DNA from: a virus
DNA: 38,717 nucleotides
IMG/VR virus record: IMGVR_UViG_3300024259_000084
Strand: one strand, 5' to 3'
Shown: piece by piece, positions 123 through 31,800 of the stretch
Position numbering within the stretch: position 1 is the first letter of the stretch
How the letters are laid out: each line of letters starts with the position of its first letter
Position numbers and translations under genes: made by a program
Notes under the pieces: generated by a model
What the model was told of the DNA's origin: nothing
What the model saw: the letters and a program-made list of their open reading frames with translations, nothing else
The model's database searches: none

Positions 123-773
123 TTATCCACAATGATAGGTGCATCCAACAAAAGCTCTTTTATAATTAGAACCAGACCATTCAAATTCTACAGCATCATA
201 ACTTGCAGATGCATTCATATCAAAAGTGCAATCTTGTGTTATTTTTGCTACTGTATAATTGTGTAATAAATCATCGTCTTGTTTCATACCCAAACCTTGT
301 ATTGGTGATGAAGTAATATAATCTCCATTTTCTAAACTACCACTATAATTTGATACCCATATTGCACCTTCACCAAGTGAATTTATAATTAGTTTTTGGT
401 CATTACTATCTTCAGCCTCCATAGTACTGGTAAAAGAACCTTGATTATATTCCCTTACATATACAGAAGATGTTGTTTGAGTTAGTATTCGTTCACCTGA
501 TTCATTATATGTGAAAGATTCACTAACATTAGTATTTTGATAATTACTTTCAAGTTCTGATATGACACCAAATACTGTTTTATCATATGCAGTATTAGAT
601 AATTTTACTTTTGGTAGTGATTCGTTAATATTTGGTTTAACATCTTGTTTTACGTTATCATTATTATCCCACAAGTTATCATAAGTACCATCGGCGCAAA
701 CTATATATCCAATTGAACCTGTGTGCTCATTTACAGTTCCAGTTGATATAGAATTTCTGTGTTGTCCGGTAAA
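123..773 (-). other. C-terminal domain resembling autoproteolytic intramolecular chaperones of tail fibres (peptidase G2/S74-type role)
   Basis: Residues 4092-4307, from FTGQH to CTYHCG-stop, preceded by HIGIRATDPLSLLHI (GNVGIGTTxP-like fibre motif); family assignment from recall. Confidence 0.55.
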
Positions 774-6700: not shown

Positions 6701-9700
6701 CATTTCCAAGACTTCCACCACTACCAGTTAAAAATAAATAATTATTTGTATCACCGACTTTCCATTCTGCGTTGGTGAACCAATAGTTATTATTATTCAG
6801 ATAAAACCCATCTTTAGTCCCACTTACATCTCGCCCCATTGCCATTTTATTATTAGCATCAGTTTCTATCCAAACAATTCCTGTAAATGAACCTGTTTGA
6901 GCTGTTATGGCTCCTTGTAAAAATACATTTTCTGTAAATAATCCAAATCCAGGAGAAGTATTTCCATATAATAATCCACTGCTTAATCCACTTAAATCAC
7001 CCAGTCTTGCTTTTAATTCTACATCATAAATAGCACTACCAGTTCGTTCTACAATATCAATATAAGGTGTTGTAGAATCATTTGGATTTGCATTGATCCT
7101 AACGAATCCACTGCCTGATCTGCCCGTTGATACGAGTACCTGACCACTTTCATAAGTCTGTGAGGCCTGTGCTGCGTCTCCAAGAGATGCAGTTGATTGT
7201 GTTCCAGGTAACGAACCACTATATCCACGAACAAGGTATAACTTACCACTTAAATCTTTTTCACTTGACGGATTATCTCTTGATGCACTATTAACAAACA
7301 TATACTCCGTTTTAAATCCTGTATCAGAGATTTTCTTTGCTGACAATATCTCACCAGATGTGAATCCACCAACATTTGCAACACTCATCGTTGTGTCTGT
7401 TGCAGATAATTGTACAGAACTTGTGTAAATAGTTGAATTTGCTACATATAATTGTCCACCAACCGCGTTTACACTTTCCTTTTCAAATACGGTTGTGGAT
7501 AAAGTACCACGAATTGTGACCTTTTCAAATTCAGCCTCTCCATTATTCGCAGAAGTTATTCTCCAACCTTTAACTCCACTTGCAAAATCTGAAGTTTGTA
7601 TAATTCCAGCTGAATCTAAAATCAAATTTTGACTTGTTATTTGATCCGTACTAATAGTCCACCCAGCAATTTTATTACGAACATCACTAAAATGTACTAA
7701 TTCATTCGACTCCGCTTCTGATCCGCTATCTGGTCCATCATAAATAACAAGACCATAATGAGATGCAGTAGTTGGATCAACTTCACCAATTCTTACTCGT
7801 ATACCAGCAGGTGAATCTGCATCATATATCTCAATTCTACTCTTAGCCGAATCAATATCTAATCTATCAGTATCTAACTTAAATGACGGAGTTGCAATAT
7901 CAATACCTGATGATTTCATTCTTAAATATTGAGTACTACTAATCGTATAATCAAATCTTGGATCATTACCATCCACACCCATTACCAACCCAGCTATTGA
8001 ATCTTGGTCAAATGTAGTTTTACTACCGAACTTCAACATCTTATCCGTTCCATCTGCGTGTAAAACGATTGCCCCACCACTTGAATCTGGATCACCAATA
8101 CTCATACTTGCGTGAGTAGATGAAATTTGAATATTAGAAGCACTTACTTCCATTTTTGTAGTTCTTAAATCAAGACCATCAGTAGAATCCCACCTCAGAT
8201 AATCATCTCCACTTTTTGCCATTTCAATCTTAGGAATATCATCATCCATTCCAACAATGATACCAATCGTAGATTTATCATAATCAGTAAAGGAAGTTTT
8301 ATTTCCCATAGTCATAAAGTTATCAGAAGCCCCACCTTGTATAGTAACTTTATTTGCTGATCCAACTTCTATTTTTGAATTTGCACCATCTAATAATATA
8401 TTGGCTGCTGCTCCTGGTACACCACCTAAACTCATAGATGCTTGTGTAGATGAAAGTTGTATATTAGAAGCTGCTAATGCTAATGTTCCTGTTTTTATAT
8501 CAAGGTCGGTTCCTGTAAATTTAAAATGTCCAGCACTTCCTACATAAGAAACTCTTGGTCTTGAAACCGAACTTACATATCCAAGAAATACTCCAGTCTC
8601 ACCATAGGCATCTGTTGCTTGTCCAATACTAACAAATGGATTTGCATTTCCACCTTTTAATAATAACTCTTTACCAGTTCCCAACGACATTGAAGCTTCA
8701 TTTGAAGATAATTCAAATCCTGTGGCTGATATATTGATATCCGTAACATTAATATCAACATCAGAACCAGTAATTGAAAAGTTTCCATTTTCAAATACTA
8801 TACCACCATCGGAATCACCAAAACGGAAATTACCATCTCCGTCCATAAAAATACCACTACCCGTTGCTAAACTAATAAAGTCAGCATCTGGTCCCATTGC
8901 AAACGTCGGTGTCTCTTTACCCTCTATAATAATCTTACCCTGTGGACTGTCAGAAGTATGTCCAAAACTCATAGAAGATTCGTTTGTTGATATTTGAATG
9001 GTTGATGCGGATACTTCAAGTTTACGAGAAGCTAAATCAATTTCTCCACCATCGAATTTTATAAAATCTGTTGCATTACCAACATGAAATTCTGGGTCAG
9101 TATTATTATTTGCTAACCAAAACCCCGCGGTTGTTGATGTTGCAGATGTTTTACCTGTTGCTATATATCCATAATCCGCATGACCTTGAAGTGTAATTTG
9201 TTTTGTCGATGTCGAACCTACTGTAATTTTACTATTCGCCCCGTCAAGTAAAATCTTACCCTCACCCAAAGACATACTTTGTTGGGTAGAACTTATTTCA
9301 ATATTTGTTGCATCTAATTCTAATGAACCAACTTGAACATCAAAATTAGTTCCATCATATTGTAAATGGTCACCACTTGCACTTCCAATTAAAAATTTTG
9401 CATCTCCATCAAAATAAATACCATTTCCACTATTATGGGCAGTAGGTGGTGTAGAACCAAGTGCTATTTTACCACTATTTGTTGCACTATCTATAACAAC
9501 TGTTCCAGCATCTAAATCAAAAACTTGTGATTTTATATCTATACCACTACCGGATGAAATCTTCAGATAATCATTTCCACTTACATTACCTTTTATCAAT
9601 ACATTACCACTACTATCAGCGAAGAAACCACTATTGGTTGTGGCTACGGTTGTTGCATCACTCAACCCACCAACTTCTATTGAACCAGCTGAATTTAATG

Positions 9701-12700
9701 TTACTACTCCACCAGTTAATGTGGTATCAGTTAATGTCCAACCACCCACTTTTCCACCAGTAAATAATACTTGTGATCCCGTTACATCTCCATCCGCTGT
9801 TACTTTAAATCGACTTGAAGAAATAAATAAATTAGTATCATCTGTACCATCATTTCCTGTTGCAGAACCACTTAAAAAGAAATTACTGGAATAAATTGCA
9901 TCACTACTAATTCCAAATCCGCCAATGTTACCTGCCGTAGCGGTAATAGTTCCTTGCATTGTAGTATTACCTGCATTATCAAGATAAAATCCTGAAGAAC
10001 TTATTTCTAATAGTCCATTAGAACCACTTACATATTGACCAGCCCCACCTAAGAAAAAATTTGATGAACTTAATATTAAATTAGTACCATTAAATTCTAC
10101 TCTTTGTCCATCTGCATCACCTGCTCTAAAGTAACCACTATTACCTATCCAAACACCATCTCCAGTATTAAGGTCAGTGGCATCCCCCATTTCTATTGCG
10201 TCTCCAGCTCGTAATGCCATATTTGTTGCAGTTAAATCATCACCACTTATAGTCCAACCAGCGATTTTTCCACCGTCAAATAATACTTGTGATCCTGTTA
10301 CAACACCACCCGCGGACACTTTAAATCTACTTGATGAAATAAACGATGCTGGATCTGATGTATCTGCGGAAGCAGATATCCTCCAATATGGTGAATAGGC
10401 TAATGACGCACTTTCTATTGATGCTCCACCGATTAAACCTGCAGATGCTGTAATTGTTCCTTCAAATACCGCTCCACTCGCAACCAATACTCCATCACTA
10501 TCAACTGCAAAATTAGGTCCAAACTTAACAAAATAATTAGTAGTATTACCTTGATCAGCTGGTGTAAAATCAATATAATATTCATCTCTTTGAATATCAA
10601 ATGTAGCCGAACTATCAGTATCTGGTCCCTTGTCGGACATATATAATGCCGCTCCAGTTGCATCTAATGTAGCGTTACTACCACTTAATTTACCATCTTT
10701 AATAATCCAATCACCAATATTACCTGCCGTGGCTGTAATAGTTCCTGTCATAGTAACATCACCACTTGCAGATAAATGAAAATTAGATGAACTAATTTCT
10801 ATATTTCCACCACTACCACTAATGTATTGAGTGTTTTGATTTCCTACGTAGAATGCATCGGCTCTAATATCTAATTCACTTGGACTACTTCTATATCTTA
10901 AATAACTTTCACTTGTAGCTACGAGTTCTAACCCAACACCCGTATAAGAATCACCACTATCTGGTAATACTGAACCGGACCACATTAAGAATCCACCTTG
11001 ACCAGTTCCTTCTGATGCACTTGTGAATCCTTCATATCCTATTGAACGAATAAAGCCAGAACTTACACCTGCCATTTCAATACCACTACCGATGGCATTA
11101 CCAATATACATAGAACCACTTAATATATTATCAGTTCCACCAATGGACGTATTCTCTCCTTGAAATGTAAAAAAATCACTAAAAATTACCGTGTCGGCTA
11201 TATTATTATTTACATCATAAAACTCCACTAAAAATCTTACACTATCTGGTCGGGTGTACAATGGTGGTATCGGTGCAACTACTTTTACATAATCAGGATT
11301 AAAAGCAGTATCTGACGCTGCTTTTACAGAAATATCTGAAATATACCATTCACCTGACGGAACTTTAAATTGTAATTTTCCTGTTCCTGTATTGTCTGCT
11401 GTGAAATTTCCTTCTATGGTTCCAAAGTCGTAATTATCAACTCCGCTTGGGAATTCTGGAACTTCTAATTTTTGAACTCCCCAATGTGATGCTTCTGTAG
11501 TATCTTTATTAAATGCATCACCTACCACGTATACTTGAAAATCACCCCGTTTAGTTACATTCCCACTAACATCCTTTTTATTCGTCTTTGTACCGTAAAG
11601 TTTTGCACGGAAAGTGTATAGTCCGTTAGCAACAAAATTTAAATCATTTTTTACTTGAACACGTAGTTCACTTTCATATTCTCTATTTGATCCAGAGATT
11701 TTCATAGAATCTATTACAATAGAAGAATCAAAAGTTAATGTTCCACTTCCCCCATCTCCATTATTTCCTTCATACGATTCCCAGTATTTTGTTATTCTCG
11801 CCTGGTCAATCCAATACCCCATGTTAGATAATGAAGTATCTTCGTTAGAATCAAATAATATTTCTGAACTTTCTATTGGAGAATCAAATATCTTTTCAAA
11901 GTCCCCAAGTGAACCTTCAGCCTTTGAATAAATCTTTACTTTATGTACATCTCCTGAAAATGTTTTTAAATCGGAAATTTCCATATCAGCGAATGAAACA
12001 TAATTTATAGATGATGTAGTCTGAGTTGAAATATCTTTGTAACTTGTATTTATAGTTTGAGATGCCAAAGGGGCTGGTACAAGAGTTACAGGAGAAGTTC
12101 TCGTATCGTGAACATAAAATAGATCAGAAGTTACAAATGAAGTTTCATTCAATACTTTCATTACTGATGAACTGAAATAAGTAGGGATGGAGTGATATGA
12201 TTCTAATGTGAATTTTGAAGCATCTACTTGTGGTGAAGTTATAGTAACTTCTTGACCTACATATAAACTTGTTACTAATGTGGAAGAATCAGTTGTAATT
12301 ATATAATCATTTGGAGATGGAGAATTCGTTTTTAATAATTTTCCTTGTGAACCAATATGACCACCTTTACCAGTTAATTTAATAAGTGGTTTATTTTCTT
12401 CTATTGTAGCCTTATTTGCTTTTTGTTTAAAATCAAGTTCTGGATAATCACCAGCTACAGAATTTGGAGTTGGTGTAATACTTTGTAAACCGTCTCTCGG
12501 TTGACCACTTACAAGTAAAGAAGAAGTTATTGGAGTTACACTTGGAACATTTAAATATCCCTTAAAAATTTCTGAAACTGTTATAGTTGGTTGTTTATAG
12601 AAAAATATAGGTTCGGTATTTACACCAGCAGCATTTATTGTAATCTGTTTAGTCCACCTTACATTATAAATCCCTTGCCATTCTGTTGGTATATTTACAT

Positions 12701-13046
12701 CAGAAGAATCTGGATTTAATTCTCCAACTATATAAAGAGTTGCTGGACCTGGTTCAACATCTTCATATATTTCAATGGAAACTCTACGAGAACCGGCTTC
12801 TAAATGACCACTAACGGCTTGAGTATATATTACTTCACCGGTTCCGTTATGTATTAACTCAAATTTTAATTCAACACCAGACTTTAAATAGGATGATCCA
12901 CCGATTAGGAAACTACTTTTACCTTGAGTTAATATTGTAGGGCATTCCAATACCCTAAAATACTTGGAATCAAATAAAGTATCTTCTACTAATATATCTA
13001 TGTCTTTTAAGTTTAATAACTCGTTTTTACGTTTTAATACACCCAA
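123..13046 (-). CDS. Giant tail fibre / receptor-binding protein (4307 aa) with internal repeats, Hint domain and C-terminal intramolecular-chaperone-like domain
   Basis: TTG start with AGGAGA SD (13058-13053); Gly/Ser/Thr-rich beta repeats (GTITATAGxIGxW, SSTxxSMSxG, FYLGDxxNYISGSGG); GWRI..GEAEFEKVTIRG motif as in phage tail tip/fibre proteins; C-terminal FTGQH...GEGAIWV...NGDYITSS...YTVAKIT...GCTYHCG. Confidence 0.85.
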   Translation of the reverse strand: MGVLKRKNELLNLKDIDILVEDTLFDSKYFRVLECPTILTQGKSSFLIGGSSYLKSGVELKFELIHNGTGEVIYTQAVSGHLEAGSRRVSIEIYEDVEPGPATLYIVGELNPDSSDVNIPTEWQGIYNVRWTKQITINAAGVNTEPIFFYKQPTITVSEIFKGYLNVPSVTPITSSLLVSGQPRDGLQSITPTPNSVAGDYPELDFKQKANKATIEENKPLIKLTGKGGHIGSQGKLLKTNSPSPNDYIITTDSSTLVTSLYVGQEVTITSPQVDASKFTLESYHSIPTYFSSSVMKVLNETSFVTSDLFYVHDTRTSPVTLVPAPLASQTINTSYKDISTQTTSSINYVSFADMEISDLKTFSGDVHKVKIYSKAEGSLGDFEKIFDSPIESSEILFDSNEDTSLSNMGYWIDQARITKYWESYEGNNGDGGSGTLTFDSSIVIDSMKISGSNREYESELRVQVKNDLNFVANGLYTFRAKLYGTKTNKKDVSGNVTKRGDFQVYVVGDAFNKDTTEASHWGVQKLEVPEFPSGVDNYDFGTIEGNFTADNTGTGKLQFKVPSGEWYISDISVKAASDTAFNPDYVKVVAPIPPLYTRPDSVRFLVEFYDVNNNIADTVIFSDFFTFQGENTSIGGTDNILSGSMYIGNAIGSGIEMAGVSSGFIRSIGYEGFTSASEGTGQGGFLMWSGSVLPDSGDSYTGVGLELVATSESYLRYRSSPSELDIRADAFYVGNQNTQYISGSGGNIEISSSNFHLSASGDVTMTGTITATAGNIGDWIIKDGKLSGSNATLDATGAALYMSDKGPDTDSSATFDIQRDEYYIDFTPADQGNTTNYFVKFGPNFAVDSDGVLVASGAVFEGTITASAGLIGGASIESASLAYSPYWRISASADTSDPASFISSSRFKVSAGGVVTGSQVLFDGGKIAGWTISGDDLTATNMALRAGDAIEMGDATDLNTGDGVWIGNSGYFRAGDADGQRVEFNGTNLILSSSNFFLGGAGQYVSGSNGLLEISSSGFYLDNAGNTTMQGTITATAGNIGGFGISSDAIYSSNFFLSGSATGNDGTDDTNLFISSSRFKVTADGDVTGSQVLFTGGKVGGWTLTDTTLTGGVVTLNSAGSIEVGGLSDATTVATTNSGFFADSSGNVLIKGNVSGNDYLKISSGSGIDIKSQVFDLDAGTVVIDSATNSGKIALGSTPPTAHNSGNGIYFDGDAKFLIGSASGDHLQYDGTNFDVQVGSLELDATNIEISSTQQSMSLGEGKILLDGANSKITVGSTSTKQITLQGHADYGYIATGKTSATSTTAGFWLANNNTDPEFHVGNATDFIKFDGGEIDLASRKLEVSASTIQISTNESSMSFGHTSDSPQGKIIIEGKETPTFAMGPDADFISLATGSGIFMDGDGNFRFGDSDGGIVFENGNFSITGSDVDINVTDINISATGFELSSNEASMSLGTGKELLLKGGNANPFVSIGQATDAYGETGVFLGYVSSVSRPRVSYVGSAGHFKFTGTDLDIKTGTLALAASNIQLSSTQASMSLGGVPGAAANILLDGANSKIEVGSANKVTIQGGASDNFMTMGNKTSFTDYDKSTIGIIVGMDDDIPKIEMAKSGDDYLRWDSTDGLDLRTTKMEVSASNIQISSTHASMSIGDPDSSGGAIVLHADGTDKMLKFGSKTTFDQDSIAGLVMGVDGNDPRFDYTISSTQYLRMKSSGIDIATPSFKLDTDRLDIDSAKSRIEIYDADSPAGIRVRIGEVDPTTASHYGLVIYDGPDSGSEAESNELVHFSDVRNKIAGWTISTDQITSQNLILDSAGIIQTSDFASGVKGWRITSANNGEAEFEKVTIRGTLSTTVFEKESVNAVGGQLYVANSTIYTSSVQLSATDTTMSVANVGGFTSGEILSAKKISDTGFKTEYMFVNSASRDNPSSEKDLSGKLYLVRGYSGSLPGTQSTASLGDAAQASQTYESGQVLVSTGRSGSGFVRINANPNDSTTPYIDIVERTGSAIYDVELKARLGDLSGLSSGLLYGNTSPGFGLFTENVFLQGAITAQTGSFTGIVWIETDANNKMAMGRDVSGTKDGFYLNNNNYWFTNAEWKVGDTNNYLFLTGSGGSLGNDLRINLEQFELNAGGGDLKISSTEKSMSFGDGDIIFQSYDATNSWGRIGSTSTKAIYITGSSTVGAIRSGKTSVTSNTAGFWLANTDGDQEFVVGDATDYIRYSGSAVDVQTRAFELDANNGDLQLSSTQKSMSIANGAIELAYSASNQAYFKLGSTGGQGIEMTGSNYGGTIRSAKRNVSDTTAGFWLHNKAGTTEFHVGDSSEYIKFDGTDLSIASAHLDITASNIDMTTDQFELDATDLSISSTHSSMSLGYDTNTTYGVTMVGGADSYLSFGPKTSPNMILKSAGSTTNYLSIGRTFGSGVGIVIGEDSGTAKLEIYKDSDKYFTFNGSEFDLRTTKFNLSTGGGLTITGVDTNGANNKILLGAATDFDTNTGFFVDGDGDFRVGTGTSGTSFLSFNQSSEELKIKTTNLNIDTTTMDIVASGSATRLSMGSSPPTDFSSNGIILSGSGYFNFQKDANNLIKNDGTFQIKSQNFELSGSTTLAIDTEKIRLGTNATVSMTHGDIGIYLDKDGKFSFKEDVNNYIIGGDGNFEIQADTFGLGTATMVVSSSVNSGTIRLGTNGGPLTATAATQGIYMDGGGALNVYGDSSNYLRIDGSTIDMRTTTFYLSGSDITLKSPDFYLGDTSNYISGSGGNLAIYSTGNTTLSGSSISLKTPDFYLGDATNYISGSGGAIKVAADTFDLNTTYLRITDTAVASALAEGIVISGASKHILVGSGIAIEGDGDSNAGSITIGSKVTLNGSSDSRISNFYIGSNDIWGGNSSIGHSATTIVLGNLDGTSKIALGATADSLSMTAGTGVYADGDGKFKAGTATGYGIFWDASTLRVSSSDFYLGDATNYISGSGGAIDVAADTFDLSTTNLRVSSSYGSSIAMGSTIPKDLNDNGIMLSGSGEFNFQVDQDNYIRQDGNAFDIKSEIFGLKTSTMIISSSLSSGTIALGATPNTSVAGTNAGVYMDGTGDFLVRADGDNFIKFDQGSSPKLLMKADTFLLGNSTTFVSGSLGDFRIGTRLVDRDNNFKVGNVTASITVPDNDYFTYWELENASDSIANRSGKLTGFEVRYKVTSGNDHALGVQYLRNGVEVDKYYFADQGTYSPGAATASIVLTDVLSTATKFKSDDQISVRFVTKDMVPGGTATSFDSSFKIYASASFNDAMLLDSSQGLIAIGSASFGETGIQLQADPTSTDVSKFYVGKKGGAHLKFENDSIEISSSNFYLGGGGQFLSGSNGNIEISSSNFHLSASGDVNMSGTITATAGEIGGWTVGSTLSATNIVLNPAGPSIYLNGKSSFGSNVDGVWIGTDGISIGDADEFNVTHEGVLNATSATVAGTINAAGGVFTGYVEAGSGNMRFGPNVSSTNDGLWIDANNYWYTTAQGGIKASDGAIGGWTLGTSTLTSDGTTANSIILKGDDGAGSESNAITIAGVVDNRIGAGTQIIGKITAAHGEIDFTRRWNYTSGCLIAGTKVTMADGTLKNIEDVNKGDIVLSFESGSIAEMKIKKVSSPVHDELVKLEFDEVDITLTPSHPVFIKDKGWSSVSPEDSINKFDYGLDECAQLEVGDITLQYKDNEIVELELLEINEIEENETVTYTISGETIHNFFANSILVHNAVGDGLQEDNWSGSGEKFITISGDADFDGTNLPADAATAPNSANYRHMAAGISGRSFGSNIGKIDHVGVYGVAAGTDAGITGARYLAGLFKGAPVAMDSSLWVGGGRPYSGVTGAANGLNLGYSGGTTTEGNYPDAGNTAQTTAAYGINFGGDISMYRSAANTLKLEDNDVLQLGDTDAVTSALRIGSLSSVGDVTVRNNTGAAAAGSLFGVRSYFSAQDADALTVEILSLTVDCGAIKLYNNSTEKIRLNANTGITLQDDIKMFFGSTDTYIYSNSDSSEDLIIGADDDIILEPDGHIGIRATDPLSLLHIQQSTDNDDGGIRLYNVSPGTYWSQRVNSSEYLHFHYNGGSYGGYLKNDSNVGQITFTGQHRNSISTGTVNEHTGSIGYIVCADGTYDNLWDNNDNVKQDVKPNINESLPKVKLSNTAYDKTVFGVISELESNYQNTNVSESFTYNESGERILTQTTSSVYVREYNQGSFTSTMEAEDSNDQKLIINSLGEGAIWVSNYSGSLENGDYITSSPIQGLGMKQDDDLLHNYTVAKITQDCTFDMNASASYDAVEFEWSGSNYKRAFVGCTYHCG
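1875..2324 (-). other. Hint (intein-like/BIL) domain, 150 aa, no endonuclease
   Basis: Residues 3575-3724: block A CLIAGTKVTMADG, block B TLTPSHPVF, block F/G HNFFANSILVHN; the +1 residue is Ala. Confidence 0.92.
2913..3035 (-). repeat. 41-aa repeat in tail fibre, distal copy
   Basis: QFLSGSNGNIEISSSNFHLSASGDVNMSGTITATAGEIGGW; 34/41 aa identical to the copy at 10707-10829. Confidence 0.9.
10707..10829 (-). repeat. 41-aa repeat in tail fibre, proximal copy
   Basis: QYISGSGGNIEISSSNFHLSASGDVTMTGTITATAGNIGDW; a third, more diverged copy lies near 9920-10040. Confidence 0.9.
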
Positions 13047-18276: not shown

Positions 18277-18660
18277 TTATATTTTATTTTTCCACACCCT
18301 AATAAATTCTTTCTGTGCCCAATTCTCCGCCTTTTCTTCATATCTATTATCGTCATGGTGATGACCACCTTTTTCTATAGCATAAGCAGTTTCCATTTCA
18401 TAATCCTTTTTATATTTAGACTTACCCATCTTTTTGGCATCTTTAGCATGGTCGATTTCATGTAAAACTGTAATATAAAAATCTTTAACGGATGAATAAG
18501 ATGATCTTATATTGATAGTGTCTCTATCCACATCGTAGTCAGCTTTATCTGGACCATTGGTGATTTTTACTTTTGATTTTAACTTATATTGTTTTACGAG
18601 CTGTTCCGCAAATTCTATATAATCAACTCGTTCTAATAATAGATGTTTTAATTTAATCAT
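18277..18660 (-). CDS. Small HExxH (zincin, ImmA/IrrE-like) metallopeptidase-fold protein with MIKLKxLLxE N-terminus
   Basis: ITVLHEIDH (HExxH at 18448-18462) and downstream YEEKAENWA. Confidence 0.65.
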   Translation of the reverse strand: MIKLKHLLLERVDYIEFAEQLVKQYKLKSKVKITNGPDKADYDVDRDTINIRSSYSSVKDFYITVLHEIDHAKDAKKMGKSKYKKDYEMETAYAIEKGGHHHDDNRYEEKAENWAQKEFIRVWKNKI

Positions 18661-19021
18661 TCGTTTTTTTTCTTAATGTATCTGCTGGTGTCGCATCCTT
18701 TGATAAATTATGTCCTATACGGTGTGGTAATATTTTTTCTAATGTTAAATTTTTTAATTTTTCATTTGGTACAATCATTTTAGTTCCCCTGTCAGTCATA
18801 TAAAAAACAGTTTTACTTATTCCTACTCTAACTATACGAGCCTCTCTACCACTAATATAAATCACATCATCATTATTAAAATCATTACCAATAAAAATCA
18901 TTATAGCCTCTAAAGCGTTTGTTATAGATTCTTTAAATAAAAATCCCGCTACTATCATTAGCACCATCCACCCATAATGTCCTAACACATCTTCTACTAA
19001 CAGTTTTATTTCTTGATCCAC
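18653..19021 (-). CDS. Truncated MscS-like membrane protein (TM segment + MscS beta-domain)
   Basis: Hydrophobic YGWMVLMIVAGFLF, then FNNDDVIYISGREARIVRVGISKTVF...KMIVPNEKL, matching the MscS F..GD.I.....G.V..I....T......iPN..l pattern; GTG start with GGAGA SD. Confidence 0.7.
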   Translation of the reverse strand: MDQEIKLLVEDVLGHYGWMVLMIVAGFLFKESITNALEAIMIFIGNDFNNDDVIYISGREARIVRVGISKTVFYMTDRGTKMIVPNEKLKNLTLEKILPHRIGHNLSKDATPADTLRKKTND

Positions 19022-19054
19022 TTACATTCTCCAAATATATTATATTTCCCTTAT

Positions 19055-19062
19055 ATAAATAT
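19055..19062 (-). promoter_or_regulatory. ATATTTAT putative late-promoter motif
   Basis: Intergenic, about 34 nt upstream of the GTG at 19021. Confidence 0.45.
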
Positions 19063-19072
19063 AATATATACA

Positions 19073-19312
19073 CTAAATCGTATCATCCAAATTAATTAAT
19101 TTACGATTTAAATCTAATAAAACGTCTATTATATCATCATAATTACAATAATTTAATTCAACAAGTATTTTACCAAGTTTTCTATCGTCCCCCCTCATTT
19201 GATTTTGAATTGCCTTTGATAATTGTCGTTTTGTAATAGTATTAGTATTCAATAACAATTTTCCTAATTTTCCACTATCGTCATTATACACTGTATTTCT
19301 CCCATGGATCAT
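19073..19312 (-). CDS. Stand-alone MshEN-like (c-di-GMP-binding) domain protein, 79 aa
   Basis: Two 24-aa motifs KLGKLLLNTNTITKRQLSKAIQNQ and KLGKILVELNYCNYDDIIDVLLDL with a 6-aa spacer, versus the MshEN consensus RLGxxLLxxGLIxxxxLxxxLxxQ; no clear SD. Confidence 0.7.
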   Translation of the reverse strand: MIHGRNTVYNDDSGKLGKLLLNTNTITKRQLSKAIQNQMRGDDRKLGKILVELNYCNYDDIIDVLLDLNRKLINLDDTI

Positions 19313-19327
19313 AAATTATAATATACT

Positions 19328-20461
19328 TTAAGAATCAAATCTAATTAAAAATGAAAGTGGCAATTCTTTATCGTTTTTAATTGGATTTGATAATTTTGCT
19401 ATAACCATTAATTCATTTGCATCATTATAAAGACCTATATTAGTAATATAAGTCCCAAATTCTGAATGGGTTGTGAAATTCTGATAATGTGTTCCAGAAT
19501 CGTATGATAAATTATATGAACTACTTGCTGGTGGCATTACTAAATCAATAGTATTTTCATATTGTGGATTTTGAAGGTTTCCATCGTAAATATATTTTGC
19601 ACCCTGTGGGACATAAATACTTCCACTTCGTCCATTAACTGCACTTGGATTTGTAGTACCAGTAAATTCAAATTCTGGAACATGACAAACATATTCATAT
19701 TCATATGAAGTTTTTGTTGCTTGAAATGTAACAGTAAATCCATCAGTTCCATCATATTGTCCAGACGGTGATGAACCACTACCAATACTTGCAGAAATAT
19801 ATAGAGAACCTGTATCTGTAATTGTGATAAGTCCATGTTCGTAAAATACATTTCCCACGCAACTTCCAGTTAAAGGACTTCCACCAGGAGTTCCAGCGGC
19901 AAAACTTGCTGAATACTGGTAATCGTAGAGTTGTCCGTTTCCATCATCTCTTAAATCTAAAGTGGTGTCTCCACTATCATCTAATATCTTTACGGAGTGT
20001 GGTTTTATTTCTTCGCCATAGTATTCTTGTGGAATTGTTATAACATTAAATTTATTATGAAGTTGTCGTGGATTTATTGAACCCCAACTTTCTCTGCCAT
20101 GTGGCCATTTTCTACTCCAATCAGTGACAGTATAAATTGGGAATCTTGTAGTATTTGATTTTGGATTTGAAGTTTTATCGTATTGATAATATAGATGATT
20201 TAATGAATAATATAATGGAATCTTAAAAAAAGTTCCATCACTATACCAAGTTTTCCAATCTTTACCTACACTTTGAGAATCTTGATTAAATACACCATAA
20301 CTTTGAGATGCAGCTGATCCCGTTAGGAAATTGTGAAAACTACCACTCACACCTTCTATTCCATAAACACCACTTCCACTATCTGTTTGCGTGAAGGTGA
20401 ATTTTTTATAAGTTTTGAATTCTTTTATTGATCTATCGTCTGGAGATATATCCTTAAACAT
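19328..20461 (-). CDS. Tail/baseplate structural protein, paralogue family B (377 aa)
   Basis: C-terminal YITNIGLYNDANELMVIAKLSNP..RFDS shared with the two adjacent genes; LRDDGNGQL motif; structural gene context. Confidence 0.7.
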   Translation of the reverse strand: MFKDISPDDRSIKEFKTYKKFTFTQTDSGSGVYGIEGVSGSFHNFLTGSAASQSYGVFNQDSQSVGKDWKTWYSDGTFFKIPLYYSLNHLYYQYDKTSNPKSNTTRFPIYTVTDWSRKWPHGRESWGSINPRQLHNKFNVITIPQEYYGEEIKPHSVKILDDSGDTTLDLRDDGNGQLYDYQYSASFAAGTPGGSPLTGSCVGNVFYEHGLITITDTGSLYISASIGSGSSPSGQYDGTDGFTVTFQATKTSYEYEYVCHVPEFEFTGTTNPSAVNGRSGSIYVPQGAKYIYDGNLQNPQYENTIDLVMPPASSSYNLSYDSGTHYQNFTTHSEFGTYITNIGLYNDANELMVIAKLSNPIKNDKELPLSFLIRFDS

Positions 20462-20472
20462 TGGGATCTCCC

Positions 20473-21498
20473 TTAAAAATCAAGTCGTACTTTGATAAGT
20501 GCTTCGGTATTTTGGTCTTTTTTGAAAGGCTGAGATAATTTAGCAACTGCAAGAAGTTCATTCTTATCATTATATAAACCAACAGTTGTAATATATGAAG
20601 TTGGTTCGGTAATGAATGAATTATTTACGAGGGTAGCATTAGATCCTGTGAAATATGACGGATTTTGACTGTGATTAAATTCAGTATTTTGTACTCTACA
20701 GAAGTAAAATGAACTTCGTTTACGTTCTTCTCGTCGTGATGCAAAATATGATCCACTTTTTATAGAAGTGAATAGCTTTCTATGATTTAAGTCATTTGTA
20801 GAAGCACTACTTCCCATTGTATGCATAACTCTATCACTAAGTCCAGAAGATAAAGAACTTGGATTTAATAAAATTATACCCGTTTCAGGATAAAATAATC
20901 CATATGAACCTGAAGTTGTGGATGTTGCTGTTGAAGTTGCAGTTGTATGAACTCCGTTTGCAATTGAACCAGATACTACCCAAAATTCTCTTTGAGCATC
21001 TCCTACATTCGAGTTTGAAGAAGCTCCACTGTCATCGATGAGTTTAATAGTATTACTACCACTTGTTAAATGTAATTCCCAATTACCTGGATCCATCTTT
21101 TCTCTATATCGTGCACGATTTGCTACTACAGTTAGAACATCATCACTATAATAATTTGTACCAGAATCCCCATGAAAATTAAATTTAGTTGTTTCTGCTG
21201 GAAGTAAAACTTGTCTAAATTGAGAGTATATTGCTTTAGTAGGATTTGTTTCTCCAGTAGCAGTTCCACCTTCTGAACCGGAACCTAATCTATGACCATA
21301 CGATACAGCAAACTGAACATCCGTTGTTTGATCATCTGACGAATGTACGTCATAATAGTATTTTCCAGTATTGGATGATTGTACTGATCCAGTAAAAAAC
21401 GTGGTTAATGTTCCTACTGCACTTGACCACATTGGTTCAGCAACCGTACTGACCATATTTTCCAATTTATCTTTAGAATCAAAAACTTTAAATGACAT
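20473..21498 (-). CDS. Tail/baseplate structural protein, paralogue family B (341 aa)
   Basis: NRARYREKMDPGNWELHL and YITTVGLYNDKNELLAVAKLSQP, closely matching the neighbouring 347-aa gene; AAGGAG SD. Confidence 0.75.
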   Translation of the reverse strand: MSFKVFDSKDKLENMVSTVAEPMWSSAVGTLTTFFTGSVQSSNTGKYYYDVHSSDDQTTDVQFAVSYGHRLGSGSEGGTATGETNPTKAIYSQFRQVLLPAETTKFNFHGDSGTNYYSDDVLTVVANRARYREKMDPGNWELHLTSGSNTIKLIDDSGASSNSNVGDAQREFWVVSGSIANGVHTTATSTATSTTSGSYGLFYPETGIILLNPSSLSSGLSDRVMHTMGSSASTNDLNHRKLFTSIKSGSYFASRREERKRSSFYFCRVQNTEFNHSQNPSYFTGSNATLVNNSFITEPTSYITTVGLYNDKNELLAVAKLSQPFKKDQNTEALIKVRLDF

Positions 21499-21509
21499 TT
21501 AAGTTCTCC

Positions 21510-22553
21510 TTAAAAGTCCAATCTAACTTTTATTACAGCTTCTCTATCTCTTGATTTTAGTAATGGTTGACTTAATTTAGCTACTGCTAAAAGTTCATTG
21601 TTATCATTGTAAAGACCAACCGTAGTGATATAAGATTTTGGATCTTGAATAAATGTAGGATTTCTCAATTCTGCATTTGACCCTGTGTAATATGTTGGAT
21701 TTTGACTCCAGTTATATTCATCAGATCTAACTCTACAAAAGTAATGAGAAGATTTAATTTGTTCTTCTCTACGTGCTTGGAATTTTGCTCCTGTACTAAT
21801 AGATGATACTAATTCGTATGCAGTATTATCGTTTGTGGCAGTTGATCTTGTCAGTGTAATTGCGAGTGAATCTTGATTTAACGCGTATGCATTCAATACA
21901 ATAATACCGAGTTCTGGATAAAAATATCCAAATGAACCATTAGTTGCTGATTGGGCAACTGCTGTCGTTTTTATTGTTGCAGTACCACCACTTATTGAAC
22001 CACTAACTATGTTGAATACTCGTTGAGATGCGTTAACTGTTGAATCAGAAGTTGCACCACTATCGTCAATTAATTTTAAAGTATTTCCACCTTTAGTCAA
22101 ATGTAGTTCCCAGTTACCTGGATCTATTTTTTCTCTATATCTTGCTCTGTTTACACCAATCGCAAATACATCAGCTGCTTCATAAGATGTACCATCACCA
22201 TCAGCATTAAAATTGAATCGTGTTTCACTTGACGCATTTTTAATACAAATGTTTCTAACTTGACGATAAATTGCCTTTGTTGGATTGTTACCGGCAGATG
22301 TAGATAATGATCCACTTCCTTCGATGTGTCCATAAGACACAGCAAATTGTACCTGTCGTGTAGAATCACTTCCAGCTTTATCATATACATCATAATAATA
22401 ATCACCACTACTACCACTTTGAGTTGATCCGGTATAAAATGATGTTAGAGTATCAGCACCACCAGACCATACTGGTGATGAAATAGTACTTGGTATGTTT
22501 GTTCTTTTATCACTATTTTCTAAAATAGTAAAGAAGTTACTTACTTCACTCAT
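21510..22553 (-). CDS. Tail/baseplate structural protein, paralogue family B (347 aa)
   Basis: NRARYREKIDPGNWELHL and YITTVGLYNDNNELLAVAKLSQP; AAGGAGA SD. Confidence 0.75.
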   Translation of the reverse strand: MSEVSNFFTILENSDKRTNIPSTISSPVWSGGADTLTSFYTGSTQSGSSGDYYYDVYDKAGSDSTRQVQFAVSYGHIEGSGSLSTSAGNNPTKAIYRQVRNICIKNASSETRFNFNADGDGTSYEAADVFAIGVNRARYREKIDPGNWELHLTKGGNTLKLIDDSGATSDSTVNASQRVFNIVSGSISGGTATIKTTAVAQSATNGSFGYFYPELGIIVLNAYALNQDSLAITLTRSTATNDNTAYELVSSISTGAKFQARREEQIKSSHYFCRVRSDEYNWSQNPTYYTGSNAELRNPTFIQDPKSYITTVGLYNDNNELLAVAKLSQPLLKSRDREAVIKVRLDF

Positions 22554-25816: not shown

Positions 25817-28800
25817 TTATTTAACGTTAAGTGGGGTAGATGGTGAGTCTGTTGTTACAAGTTTTGTTGGACTTGTTATTGTTATTTCTACTGCCGCTGA
25901 TTTATCTTCATATCTACTTCCATTATCTGAAACTGTTGTATCGTTAGTTTGAACACACCCAAGATAAAATAGTCTATCAGTACCCAAGGATTCATCCCAC
26001 TTATTATCTAAATCAGATAATACAAAACTTGATGAATATGGATTATGTAATGATGCACTTAATGAAGATGAATAATGATACTCAACTTCAGAATTAAAAT
26101 ATGATGTAACATTCGTTTCAATTCTTGGCATAACTACTTCTTCAAAAATTGATTTTTGACTTCCTAATTGGATTGTGGCATTATAATAATCACTTCCGTA
26201 CCATCCACTTTCATCTCTATCCCCTATTCCATATAAAGCTGGCATTTCTAATATATCCTTTCCTACATATGACCCTGTTCCTGATGCTACTTCTGAAAAA
26301 GTATGACTTGGTGCGTTATATGATACAAGGTCTGCAGAAAACACTACACTTGAACCGGTTTCTTGTGTTTTATAATTTAATTTAAATGGATCATATAAAT
26401 TTACATTTGAAGTAAAATCTTCATGTATAGCGGATGCTGAAATATAAGAACCCGTTTCATTTGTATGAAAATTAACATTAAATGGATTTAAATAATTCAT
26501 GTTTGTTTCTAATGGAACATATTCTGATGACGCTGAAATATATGACCCCGTTTTATTTGTTTTTGAGGATACTTTGAATGGATTACTATAATTTATATTT
26601 GCATCATAATTAGGATACTCCGAGCTCTCTGAAATATATGCCATGGTGTCAATAAATGTTGTGTGGTGTGCTGTCTCAAGTATTGGTTTCTTACCAATAA
26701 TTATTTTATCCCTTTCCAATACAGTTGGTTCTATCATAATTCCAACATTTGCATTTGCTCTTGCTGGAATTAAACTTTTTACTTGTTTATATAATGAACT
26801 ATCATAATATTTTAATAATCTTAAATAATCCCAGAAGTTATTTGGTCCACTATATTTCTGCCAATATAAATTTCGTGCCTCCACAAGTCCGGTATATTGT
26901 TCTTTGTACTGGTCACGTGGATCTCCAATATATTGGTCGAAATCAAGGTCTGGCATTGATAATATAATATCTTCATCAATTGGAGCAGATGGTGAAAAGT
27001 ATATTCCAAGTTTGTTAGAATCAATTGGAGCATTGTCATAAGCCGGTGTTGTAATACTTTCACCGAATTTTAATATTGGGTTTCCTATCTTATCATTTCT
27101 AACATCATCTTCTATTCTAATTTTTGTAGATGATCTACGAGATGGACCAAGATTTGGAACTTTCATTTTAGTTTCATCAACTACTGATGAGAAGTGATCT
27201 TTAAGTCCACTTGTAAAATTATATGGAACTGCAGATGAAGTGAATGATTGGTCTGCACTTGCATCTTGAAACCATTGATTTACTCCAACACTCAAATCTT
27301 TGTCATCATCGAATGAATAACGTGTGACTAAATCTGTATAAGATGCGGATGGGTGGTTTCCATCAAATGATATTGGAGCTGTCACATGATTATCAAATGA
27401 CGATTCTAATAGTGGTGTAGTCCAATTTCTATATTCCATCATAGAACCACTAAATGATTCACCGAAATCAACACTTTCTGGACCACCTATTGTAATTGTA
27501 TTTCCACCTCCATTATATGAAGTATTATATGATTGTGAAACAGCTCCTAATGAACCACTTACTGTCATTTCACTTGTGGATTCTAAATATATTTTACTTC
27601 TACCTACATCGTATTTTTTAGTGTATAATGTATAAACTACATCCTGACTTGTATCATCATCACTTAAATGAGTTCCAGATGCAGAAGTTCTGGTTAACAT
27701 TACCGAATAAAACTCTCCATCATATACTGGTAGTGCTGATGATGTTATTTCATTGTACCCTCTACTGCCACTTAATTTAAAATTAACATATCCATATTGA
27801 TCTGATGAGCCATTGTCTTTAAGTCCAATAGACCAATCTGTTCCTCGTCTAACTAATACTTGATTAGAACCCGTTACAGCTTTAAATCTAAATTCTATTG
27901 TGTCTGGTCGTCTACTTGTTGCTCCATCTCCTTGTGTAACTGCTTGCCAAGTATCATTTTGAACATAAGTGTTATTTGTTGCTCCGAAGAAATTTAATGC
28001 TTTTGTAAATTTTCTTGTTAAAAACGATTCTGCAGATTGTCCTGGTAGTTTTGGTCCACCATATTCCACAACACGTAAAATAGAAGATGGAATACCATAA
28101 CAACTTATCAGACCATTAATTGCTCTGGAGGTCCCTTTTGTTTTTAGGAAATATGGCATATTGTTTATTATACGACTCCATATTTCTCTGGATATATCTC
28201 TATCTGATGTTCCGCTAAATTGCCATGGAGTTTCTGAACCAGTTTGCTCCATTCCCAAAATGTATCGTGGTATGGAAACTAAATCTTTTCCATCATAAAC
28301 TTCCCAACCAAGTGATTGTGCAACAGGTTTTAATAAATCTCTTGCTAAACCACTATCTACACCATCTCGTCTATCATGAACATCGGTCATTGACTTTACG
28401 AATGCCCAAATGTCATCAAAATAATGACCAATCATATCTATAAAGTTTAAGAATAAGTCATTTTCAGAATCATCTTGGACAAATGTTGGAAGATTAACTC
28501 TTAATCTATTCATATTTTGTTTATCATATACAGATGATGAAATTATTTGATTATTATACCAATCAACAGCTACAGATTGTGTAACTCTGTAATTTATATA
28601 CGGGTCGGAATAAGTCCCAGTTCCAGATAGTTTCGGCCATGCATTGTCGTGTTGTATTCCAATGGAACTACTTGAATAAGATGAACTTTTGTTATACATA
28701 TAGTTTTCAAATTTATCAAACGTATTTATAGTTTCACGACGCTTTCTTTCCCACCATGCAATTTGAGTTGTAGAACCACTAATCGGAGATAATCCTGGAT

Positions 28801-31800
28801 TATATGATGATGACCCTGAAAGTGGGAGATAACCAGTTCCACTTAATGTTCCAGAAAGAGACGCACTTCTATCTGAATACATTTCGATTAAATCTAATTT
28901 ATATTTAAAATTCCGGACTCGTTTTTCTGCTGAACCAAAATGTATGAAATTATCGAATAAAAAATGATCAATATTGATATCTATACTTAAACTTCCACTC
29001 AAAAGTTCATTTTCTAAACTTTCTTTTATAGAAGAATCTGTTGTTGTTAATGAATCATATCCTTTATATTCTGTTTTTCCTGTTCCAATGGGACTATTAA
29101 CATTTCCAGGTTCTGGTGTACGAAGAACTATATCACTTATTTCTTCTTCAATAAAAGGAATGAGAGTACAAGTTTCTTCAATAGGTGGTATCATTTCCTT
29201 TACCACACTACAAAAATCTTGATCTTTTATGTCACCCTGTAACGGTTCATATAATTTATATACAGCTGAGTGTGGATATTCTGGATATGTAATCGTATCC
29301 AATTTAAAATTAGTTATCAAACTAAAATTATTAGGGCCAAATTTTATAAGTTTACTTAAATCTTCTTCGGTATCCCTTGGACTATTTATAAACCACTTTT
29401 CAAACCCATTTGAATTTTCATCATTTATAGATTGCATATCATATAATGAATACGAATCAAAATCATGACCAGCTTCATTTCCAAGTTCTTCATATGAATT
29501 TAATAACGTAATAGTATTTCCACTTATTCCAGCAATATCACCCCGTAGTGTTCCAAAGGTAGGTTCTACTGAATAAAGTGATGATGTATAATCTACACTA
29601 AATTCTGTAAATTCATTCCAAGGACGAATGTTTGTAGAATTATCAAAAACTGAACCATTGGGTGCTAAATTCTCATAAGTATCTTTTAAAATAATAGTAT
29701 TTTTATCTATTATGGTTTCAATTTCTGCAACCAAGTCCTCCGTAACAGGAATTTTATCAATAGTGGTTGATATTACAGTTCTTTGTATTTGTACATTTTC
29801 TACCCAAAGTATTCCTTCTGGACCATAGTGACCATATACATATAAAGATGTTGGTTTCGTTAAATCCCAATCTTCTTCTACTTCTGCCGTATAACTTACC
29901 TGTTCCCATTCATCAGTATTGGAAACTGGAATATACCTTTGAAATTCTCGTTGCCATGCGTGATGACTACCTTCCTCTAAAGTTGATGGATGATTTCCAA
30001 TATTAGATCCCCAATATTGACCAACTTCACTTTTTCTATGATGTAACAATCCAACCATTGCACCTTTTTTAATGGTATCGGATTTTTGCCACCAGGTTAT
30101 TGTAATGTTATCACCAACACTAATTCCTTGTGATGCCATTTCATATGGCAATGTTTGGGCTATACCCAACCATCTATGTGCAAGACCCATTGGTTGACTT
30201 TCAACTGTATTAAGTCCCGTTTTAAATGGACCATCATAACTTGTATGATTTGGAGCATCAAATTGAGAATTTTTATCGATGAATTTCATTACAGTATCAC
30301 CATATTGTCCTTCACCTTGTACCCATTTAGCGTGATATCCTAACCAACCACTGTGCCATCTTGATCTACTATTTTGTATATCAACACTCCCACCCCAATC
30401 GAACCAATTAAATCCATATGACCAATTTTCAACCTGTACTGCATCTTTATGTAATGCGGGATCCCAAGCTTTCCAAATTTCATCTGTTATGTTGAATGTG
30501 GGTGTCCACTCCCAAACTAAATTATTTTTTCTATTTCCATTATTCCAAATCCATTCACATTCTTCCAATTCTGGGTCATTATTACTCCCCCAAGTACCAC
30601 TGCTATTTGCGAGTCCGAGTGACTTCCACCCAGGTAAATTAGAAGTAGAACCATCAGCTTCAATAATTTTCCACACTCCAGGTGAAGTGGTAGATAAATT
30701 AGATTCAGATTCTGTATCTATTACATAATCACCGTCAACATCACCAGTTTTATATTCCGTTCCCTTATATGTTATTTTTGCTAAAAATGCTGCAGCACCG
30801 GAAATATTTTTTGTAACCAATCTGAGCTTATCTGACAGTGAAAAATCTGCTGTGCTGAAATCCTTACTTTGTCTCCAGTTATTATGTGATCCCAATTGAC
30901 TTTCATTGCCGTTTGAATCTACTTTATAAAGTATAAATTCATGGTCCGCTTGTATCCACACTTTTATTGTAGAATTCCCTATATCTGGAAAATCACCGTG
31001 GTATTTAGATTTTCTAAATTCTCCTTCATAATTAGTTATTTGAGTGGCATTAGAATTTTTTATTGAAATGTCATCCACAACTTTGATTTCAGTGACTTCG
31101 CTAAAATTTTCATCTACTACGAAAGCATCCTTAATGATAATTTTACCACTTCCTCTACTACCACCCTCTCCCATAAGGGATATAAATCCAGCATCTTCAT
31201 TCGATATTTCTGCATATAACTTATTATCATCTATAAAAGAAATTGTACCAGTTGTTTGGCTATCCATTTCTTCTTGTCTTGAACTGACCATATATGGACT
31301 TGGAGTTCCAGAAACACTTCCTGGTTCAACTTGAACATTTGTAATATACCTAATTCCTGTTTCTGTTACAGTGGTTTTTCCTAAAAGCCATTTTATAGTA
31401 CCATCGGAATTTTCTGGAATAGTTATAGTTTTATATTCACGCTTCCATTCATTTCCACTTATAATTTTAGTTTCAAATGTTCCACCTGCATTTTCAATTG
31501 AAGAGATATTAACCTCGGAGTCTCCCTTATTGATTTTTCCAGAAAATAATTCTCTGTTGGATGTCCAATCATCACTCCAATACACCCAACAACTCAATAT
31601 ATAAGTTTCATTTGATATTCCCTTTACAATAACTTCATACTTGTTATCAGATCCATTAGATGTTGTTTTTAATGTCCATGCACTATTACCTGGATTAGAA
31701 AATTTTTCTATCGTGTGATTATTTGATATTAACGATTTTTCAGTAATATCATTTCCATCAAAAAAGTTCCCATTGGAAACTAAATTTTCAGATATAGGTA

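Follow-up and report, generated by a model that had tools for sequence, protein, structure and literature searches.

MshEN domains are among the tightest receptors of cyclic di-GMP (c-di-GMP), a second messenger. The closest described systems are the N-terminal subdomain of Vibrio cholerae MshE (MshEN_N) and the GSPII domains of Thermus thermophilus PilF. Isolated MshEN_N (residues 1-62) binds c-di-GMP at 0.35 µM and binds cyclic GMP-AMP (cGAMP) weakly, at 330 µM, and MshE mutants of G11 and G40 remain folded with their binding lost (PMC5013675). In PilF, GSPII-B, which has a native Lys at position 1 of the motif, binds at 6 nM, the K167R change makes this 25-fold worse, and half II tolerates Leu as its first residue (PMC11731258). 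In the papers searched, MshEN is found on cellular proteins only, and no phage-encoded one was apparent by title or abstract among the matches listed for MshEN and phage. In this work, we examined a small gene of IMG/VR virus record IMGVR_UViG_3300024259_000084, a stretch of 38,717 nucleotides that we call the window and that comes from an uncultured large myovirus. A sequence-only reading of this DNA had taken the gene for a stand-alone MshEN domain and a possible free-standing c-di-GMP sponge. Judged by its sequence relationships, the protein is the severed cytoplasmic head of an abundant inner-membrane protein of marine myoviruses, named here family F. We propose, tentatively and as a reading that falls a little short of probable, that this head is still folded and functional as a soluble ligand binder.

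Aligned with the MshEN motif described by Wang et al. 2016 (24 residues; PMC5013675), the segment 19109-19270 corresponds exactly to residues K15-L68 of the open reading frame (ORF; Table 1). As in MshE (5HTL, PMC5013675), a predicted four-helix bundle carries two tandem 24-residue half-motifs in the same register; each half has Leu-Gly at positions 2-3 and is hydrophobic at the clamp positions 17 and 21, and Gln is present at position 24 of half I. Unlike MshE, the phage head comes without MshEN_C or ATPase, both halves have Lys in place of Arg at position 1 and Asn in place of Gly at the turn (position 10), the spacer has six residues where five are canonical (six also in all 52 distinct family variants), and Leu takes the place of the half II Gln. 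Thr at position 11 of motif I and Lys at position 4 of both motifs are additional departures. The two half-motifs at near-canonical spacing, the R-to-K and G-to-N substitutions and the lack of an attached ATPase had all been noticed in the sequence-only reading, and these observations hold for what is a phage-encoded fold of MshEN_N type. GSPII-B and GSPII-C of PilF (8PDK, PMC11731258) resemble the head in their native Lys at motif I position 1, their variable spacer length, their tolerance of a residue other than Arg at motif II position 1 and their structure (Foldseek root-mean-square deviation (rmsd) 1.3-1.5 Å over 52-53 residues); in our reading of the profile alignment, the binding-competent GSPII-C also has a spacer of more than five residues. 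They differ from it in keeping both terminal Gln residues and the C-subdomain, and in being part of a hexameric ATPase. The non-binding PilF GSPII-A and XpsE N-domain (PMC12002112, 9G1W, 2D28) share the same fold (Z 5.5 and 6.6) but have lost the Gly of position 3, the Arg or Lys of position 1 or the Gln, whereas the phage head keeps the Gly in both halves and the Gln of half I.

The true start of the gene is probably the GTG at 19291. It is preceded at 6 nt by GGGAGA, in agreement with most genes of the window, which show (A/G)GGAGA followed by 6-7 nt, and a DNA alignment that starts 14 nt upstream of it places it base for base on the GTG of the closest full-length gene (locus L003), so that the protein would have 72 aa. 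The proteins of relatives likewise start about six residues ahead of the K-L-G. The sequence-only reading had stated that a clear Shine-Dalgarno (SD) sequence was lacking, because the ATG at 19312, which indeed has no SD before it, was taken as the start; this statement no longer stands. The 72-aa product has a computed mass of 8.3 kDa, is hydrophilic without a transmembrane (TM) segment, and ends 11 residues past the head (helix 4).

The resemblance to MshEN is far beyond chance. When the single sequence was compared with the PDB using phmmer, T. thermophilus PilF (7e-5), Geobacter PilB (1e-4) and MshE (0.15) were retrieved, and a profile built from the phage family gave 3.2e-11, 3.3e-11 and 1.7e-6 for PilF, PilB and MshE, respectively, with the halves in register. 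Over 1.84 billion representatives, phmmer returned 414 matches at E<=1e-3 that form two classes, bacterial multi-repeat MshEN/DUF4388 proteins at 30-37% identity and short-looking proteins at 50-60% identity in which the domain is N-terminal; one of the 414, P0025, scores 3.7e-52 on the Pfam MshEN model. With the ORF itself, Pfam gave a sub-threshold match to DUF4388 alone (E 0.024) and PHROGs gave nothing. The AlphaFold2 model, computed with the family alignment as input, has helices at 11-22, 28-39, 46-52 and 58-76, with a predicted local distance difference test (pLDDT) score of 86-91 in the core. Its top eight Foldseek matches in the PDB are all MshE or PilF GSPII structures, mostly c-di-GMP-bound (rmsd 1.3-2.0 Å over 51-55 residues). 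A Foldseek-independent VIA search of 48,161 chains placed MshE 5HTL first (Z 8.4, rmsd 2.4 Å over 57 residues), with model residues 15-72 on residues 9-65 of the 5HTL chain and K15 on R9, and its ranks 1-6 are all GSPII N-domains (MshE, PilF-GSPIIB, PilF, XpsE-N, Xanthomonas citri PilB-N and PilF-GSPIIA). No MshEN_C subdomain, ATPase or other output domain was found in the protein by Pfam or PHROGs. On homology and the predicted model, the domain is the N-terminal four-helix MshEN/GSPII subdomain and not a whole MshEN.

In its relatives, this head belongs to a larger protein. Among IMG/VR contigs, 107 were obtained and 80 kept; with two further contigs, 82 loci were examined, and all of them (82/82) encode a protein of 181-231 aa or have the gene cut by the contig end. 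A family F protein comprises the head, an acidic or proline-rich linker that is variable and predicted to be disordered, one TM helix and a periplasmic coiled coil. Its alignment shows a conserved ELSED..TKF segment together with the TM helix, then a conserved stretch EI.EAK.LP ... EYPS.P.G.NWPRSYEQYK and a long C-terminal helix; the periplasmic segment YPS..NWP.S.EQYK, the TM helix and the coiled coil are present in all 82 relatives. An AlphaFold2 model of a full-length relative (pLDDT 62.6, low outside the head and the last helix) served for topology alone. The window head shares 55-63% identity with family F heads (best tblastn segments), and the closest full-length relative, L003, is 63% identical, or about 61% in the codon alignment. 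Window gene and family F occupy the same genomic slot, between the p347/p341/p377 paralogues and the zincin and RusA genes, and their start codons and SD sequences are homologous. A tblastn search of the family F C-terminal part against the whole window returned nothing, which establishes the absence of the TM/coiled-coil part within the window, the rest of the phage genome lying outside it. Because the relatives all carry linker, TM helix and coiled coil, the stand-alone state is secondary: the protein is free here, as the sequence-only reading had it, but it is the N-subdomain only and derives from a truncated member of family F.

Family F is widespread. In ocean metagenomes, a profile search turned up at least 5,325 distinct clusters (90% identity; about 197-236 aa), virtually all of them unannotated. 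PHROGs recognise the C-terminal TM/coiled-coil part alone, as families of unknown function, and family F was not found in the papers searched. Neither the ORF nor a full-length relative gave a true tblastn match in 50,697 cultured-phage records, and the family is known only from metagenomes.

The gene lies in an island that spans, in relatives, the region from the three paralogues to the zincin/RusA/primase block, with conserved gene order. In every relative obtained, family F is found between a barrel-like protein, often together with a lipoprotein, and a periplasmic thioredoxin-like protein. The first is a 430-aa signal-peptide protein resembling an outer-membrane barrel (76/80 loci), with a barrel-like C-terminus and no Pfam or PHROG match; the lipoprotein has 197 aa (67/80 loci) and precedes family F; and a signal-peptide thioredoxin-fold protein (PF00085, 37.9 bits) follows directly in 76/80 loci. 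Barrel, lipoprotein, family F and thioredoxin together would span all layers of the Gram-negative envelope. In L003 this envelope module is located at 8221-11007. A Popeye/cyclic nucleotide-binding multi-TM protein (PF00027, 60 bits; PF04831, 54 bits), i.e. a membrane protein sensing a second messenger in the same island, is encoded two genes past the head gene in 30 loci (L004:11247-11897). Downstream of the module, 21/80 loci have 2-4 genes in tandem for type IV pilins or pseudopilins with a G-FTLIEL N-terminus (PF07963 above cut-off; L004:12813-13722), and a holin-like gene (PF11351, sub-threshold) is present in 18 loci. No barrel, lipoprotein, thioredoxin, Popeye, pilin or holin-like gene is present within the window.

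The truncated allele is genuine, with its exact 79-aa product indexed in 72 collection blocks and an identical gene order around the head in 23 contigs from ENA, JGI, NCBI and Logan samples. A second truncated lineage (P0018, locus L092), with contigs from three runs, encodes 70 aa and stops inside the linker; its gene order is p377, a 3' stump of the barrel gene, head, zincin and RusA. The stump, at L092:1335-1461, reads ...YGIEFGSNYQFLGF up to its stop codon and marks a deletion scar between p377 and the free head. Two lineages, that of the window (72 aa) and one sister (70 aa), have lost the anchor and the envelope module and kept the head. Other 79-aa "stand-alone" database matches were not counted as truncated lineages: P0034 lies on a contig of 0.8x coverage, and P0078 on chimeric contigs joining AT-rich and GC-rich sequence. 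Two short public contigs, L149 and L150, join an AT-rich phage head gene to GC-rich bacterial sequence just past the domain; the semblance of a 79-aa stand-alone protein there is probably an artefact of chimeric assembly.

Selection on the head was analysed over 61 aligned codons of three sequences. Nonsynonymous (dN) and synonymous (dS) divergence were 0.31 and 1.32 between the window and L003 (dN/dS 0.24, Fisher p 5e-5), 0.16 and 0.97 between L003 and L092 (dN/dS 0.17, Fisher p 1e-6), and 0.30 and 0.52 between the window and L092 (dN/dS 0.58, Fisher p 0.155). Since dS is lower between the two truncated copies and both carry Ile in place of a Thr that 50/51 other variants have, these 61 codons suggest that the two free heads are sisters, derived from one truncation event. 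The p377 identities of the window, L092 and L003 form a trichotomy at 90-91%.

Conservation within the family points to the ligand site. Among 51 distinct variants, Gly at position 3 is found in 51/51 and 50/51 for the two halves, Gln24 of motif I in 51/51, and the first residue of motif I is Lys or Arg in 51/51; the first residue of half II is Lys in the window and its nearest relatives, and Thr or Ser in most of the family. Ligand-site residues thus appear to be conserved where the fold does not require them. With Lys native to position 1 of the tightest known binders (PMC11731258), the R-to-K change is a favourable natural variant. The ligand is most likely c-di-GMP, going by motif conservation, with an affinity that is probably micromolar because half II lost its Gln; for binding at physiological concentrations we would give the family roughly even odds, and the diverged window copy slightly lower ones. 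The family-invariant K28 and R29 of a T-K-R-Q motif lie at the start of helix 2 of the AlphaFold2 model. Helix topology would place this Lys-Arg pair opposite the nucleotide site, so that the head may hold a second contact surface.

In the explanation that we favour, the truncated head has kept its fold and its binding of the full-length protein's ligand, most likely c-di-GMP, as the Lys-Leu-Gly opening both halves, the hydrophobic clamp residues and the Gln closing half I would suggest. Deprived of its membrane anchor, the head would bind or buffer the nucleotide in soluble form and at 1:1 stoichiometry; alternatively, the freed head might compete for the normal contact partner of the head. 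It would do so under weakened selection and may be heading for loss.

Several observations weigh against a functional ligand binder. The check proposed in the sequence-only reading, a comparison with the Pfam MshEN model PF05157, gave no match to the ORF even at E<=10; this model has 90 positions, includes part of the C-subdomain, which is absent here, and matches P0025 over 81 residues. The PHI-BLAST pattern of Wang et al. 2016 is matched by neither half, even in its relaxed form: it demands Gly, Ala or Ser at position 10, where the window has Asn, and Thr 11 of half I and Leu 24 of half II deviate as well; the pattern is passed by 0/52 family variants for half I and by 7/52 for half II. Position 10 is Asp or Asn rather than Gly in the family, and half II has no conserved terminal Gln. 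In PilF, one Gln-to-Glu change costs 77-158-fold, still leaving about 0.5-1 µM, and two abolish binding (PMC11731258). PilF GSPII-A illustrates that a near-perfect or perfect consensus can fail to bind in the wrong structural context, and in this background binding is lost when half II begins with Ser (PMC12002112). The dN/dS between the two truncated copies is not distinguishable from 1, the window branch carries 2.5-3x more amino-acid change than the other two (three-point subtraction), and the window copy alters three near-invariant family positions (D-to-N24, E-to-K48 and T-to-I62). Constraint seems to have been relaxed after the cut.

The one hint of a host and the available expression data add to these reservations. 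The contig of one relative was binned as Candidatus Pelagibacter, the binning of phage contigs being weak evidence, and the GC content of the window (33%) is like that of the Pelagibacter group; strong SD use argues against a Bacteroidota host. Among 41 genomes of the Pelagibacter family, GGDEF was found in 1/41, and no GGDEF was found in five relatives of 94-126 kb (31-72% complete). The same 41 genomes have Pfam MshEN in eight PilB-type ORFs, and the three N-termini examined (L145-L147) are without the x-L-G signature; the PilB MshEN of Pelagibacteraceae is likely a non-binding branch, as these sequences suggest. If the host lacks housekeeping c-di-GMP, c-di-GMP made in defence, as in STING-type cyclic oligonucleotide-based anti-phage signalling systems (CBASS), becomes a more interesting target. 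Seventeen seawater metatranscriptome runs from 14 studies contain the stretch, and the ORF is covered, with 0-1 differences, by contigs of four runs (three studies); such contigs show neither strand, level nor true RNA origin and are not proof of transcription. One 2016 marine metatranscriptome run contains a 178-nt contig, matching 18985-19162 of the window, that spans the head gene's 3' half and the first part of the next gene at a depth of 42 vs 5-12 for its neighbours. A scan of the window for sigma-70 promoters and terminators was uninformative (5 promoter-like sites vs 11.4 expected; no terminator).

The head could instead be a decaying remnant, the deletion having taken envelope module and anchor and left a non-functional ORF behind. 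The relaxed constraint, the raised dN and the altered positions described above speak for this, the dN/dS of the truncated pair contrasting with the values of 0.17-0.24 obtained against the full-length relative; barrel, lipoprotein, anchor and thioredoxin are moreover wholly absent, and the visible barrel-gene stump of L092 indicates that island deletions leave debris. However, although the truncated copies differ at 50 of 183 nt, no stop has arisen in frame (chance P 0.03-0.05 by simulation, indels ignored), and the window head retains its own consensus SD and start, all ligand-site signature residues of half I and the K-L-G of half II. In two lineages whose flanks differ, hardly more or less than the domain has been kept, and the identical allele recurs across many samples. 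Taking both sides together, we regard a mere remnant as unlikely, though it is an explanation to be taken seriously.

Other readings keep the head functional and give it another role. As a protein decoy, it would mimic the N-domain of a host PilB, MshE or GspE ATPase and compete for its docking partner at the inner-membrane platform, altering pilus or type II secretion activity, for example as a block to superinfection through pili. PilB and PilF N-domains are the best sequence matches, type IV pilins are encoded just downstream of the full-length gene in part of the relatives, and K28/R29 may hint at a second interaction surface; PilF's N-terminal half is reported to bind PilM (PMC12002112). 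No T2SSE ATPase was found above cut-off in the five long relatives, which gave sub-threshold P-loop matches only, so that the phage must use host machinery. Against a decoy, no partner was identified, the window has no pilin genes, the PilB N-termini of the candidate host group are unlike the phage head in having no x-L-G, and nucleotide binding better explains the strict conservation of the ligand-contact Gly and Gln; we consider it quite unlikely. A dedicated anti-defence sponge, which would sequester the c-di-GMP of STING-type CBASS or 3'3'-cGAMP in the manner of Acb2 or Tad proteins, appears very unlikely to us. In its favour, the phage protein is small and soluble and its fold is one that binds cyclic dinucleotides, bacterial STING CBASS signals through c-di-GMP (PMC8748872), MshEN_N also binds cGAMP, if weakly, and other viral clusters of 75-84-aa GspE-N-like proteins exist in the ESM Atlas. 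Acb2, Acb4, Tad1 and Tad2 are likewise small phage proteins for which sequestration of nucleotide messengers is the parallel proposed, but their folds are unrelated to the head and no homology was seen. Known phage sponges are oligomers with interface pockets; the head would bind 1:1 as a monomer, probably with micromolar affinity. It originates from a membrane envelope protein and not from a sponge lineage, its selection is apparently relaxed, it is encoded at the boundary of structural and replication genes rather than among obvious early genes, and the free form occurs in two small lineages only, of thousands. No known sponge family is among the Pfam, PHROG or fold (Foldseek, VIA) matches, an absence that by itself does not exclude such a relationship. 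The dedicated free-standing sponge suggested by the sequence-only reading is thus not supported, and a severed head that may still bind its ligand remains our preferred reading.

The features of the locus are collected in Table 1. The window also encodes baseplate wedge proteins, an SbcC-like protein, a primase and RusA, and its closest cultured phages are Microcystis phage Mel-JY01 (48%) and Flavobacterium phage immuto (41%). Gene order around the head is p377, head, mini-MscS, zincin and RusA. The mini-MscS gene is conserved in 20 relatives at another position of the island, ahead of the barrel gene and before the head-bearing gene, and the arrangement in the window therefore does not result from one simple deletion. 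The zincin-like protein, whose gene overlaps that of mini-MscS by 8 nt, has an HExxH motif and matches the MPTase-PolyVal family and a PHROG annotated as anti-restriction. Upstream, three tandem paralogues of 377, 341 and 347 aa (p377, p341 and p347; 19328-22553, minus strand) share a C-terminal ...GLYND.NEL...AKLS.P..K... ending, have no Pfam or PHROG match, and show conservation across 67 related loci. Also on the minus strand are two giant ORFs, of 4307 aa (123-13046) and 2255 aa (25817-32584), which have relatives 40-89% identical over parts. No psbA was found in the five long relatives.

Table 1. Coordinates of the head gene, its motifs and its neighbours in the window.
Feature	Position	Strand	Basis or comment
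Head ORF, 79 aa	19073..19312	-	ORF list
Revised coding sequence (probable), 72-aa cytoplasmic MshEN_N-type four-helix protein, GTG start	19073..19291	-	Alignment with L003 GTG, SD, fold and homology
In-frame 5' extension to ATG, 7 codons, probably untranslated	19292..19312	-	ATG without SD; no counterpart in relatives
Shine-Dalgarno GGGAGA, 6 nt before GTG	19298..19303	-	Pattern common to most window genes
MshEN motif I, K15-Q38: K-L-G...L...I...Q, Asn at turn position 10	19199..19270	-	Motif alignment; K15 on MshE R9
Spacer M39-R44, 6 residues, family-invariant Gly41	19181..19198	-	Family alignment
MshEN motif II, K45-L68: K-L-G...I...L, Asn at position 10, Leu for Gln at position 24	19109..19180	-	Motif alignment
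p377, last of three paralogous structural-block proteins; conserved left border of variable island, upstream of head	19328..20461	-	91% identical to L003 and L092 homologues; no Pfam/PHROG match
Mini-MscS, one-TM protein with MscS beta-domain, 122 aa, downstream of head	18653..19021	-	PF00924, 24.8 bits (cut-off 20.2)
Zincin-like metallopeptidase, 127 aa; conserved right island border	18277..18660	-	PF18818, 30.5 bits (cut-off 27.5); syntenic in relatives

To conclude, a domain of MshEN type forms the head of a membrane protein that ranks among the commonest unannotated ones in ocean myoviruses, and the truncated form offers a ready-made minimal construct as well as a natural experiment on whether receptor domains can turn into sponges. 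That the free head is already a functioning soluble binder of c-di-GMP or cGAMP, cut by the phage from its own envelope-protein sensor, has in our view a slim chance of being correct. If true, this would make it the first MshEN-fold nucleotide sponge of a virus; it would blunt the c-di-GMP lifestyle signalling of the host or STING-type CBASS, and would show how receptor domains can give rise to sponges. If there is no binding, family F would be a new non-binding GSPII branch in which the invariant T-K-R-Q marks another function. If the head binds c-di-GMP, very abundant marine phages would read or manipulate the second messenger of their host at the cell envelope.

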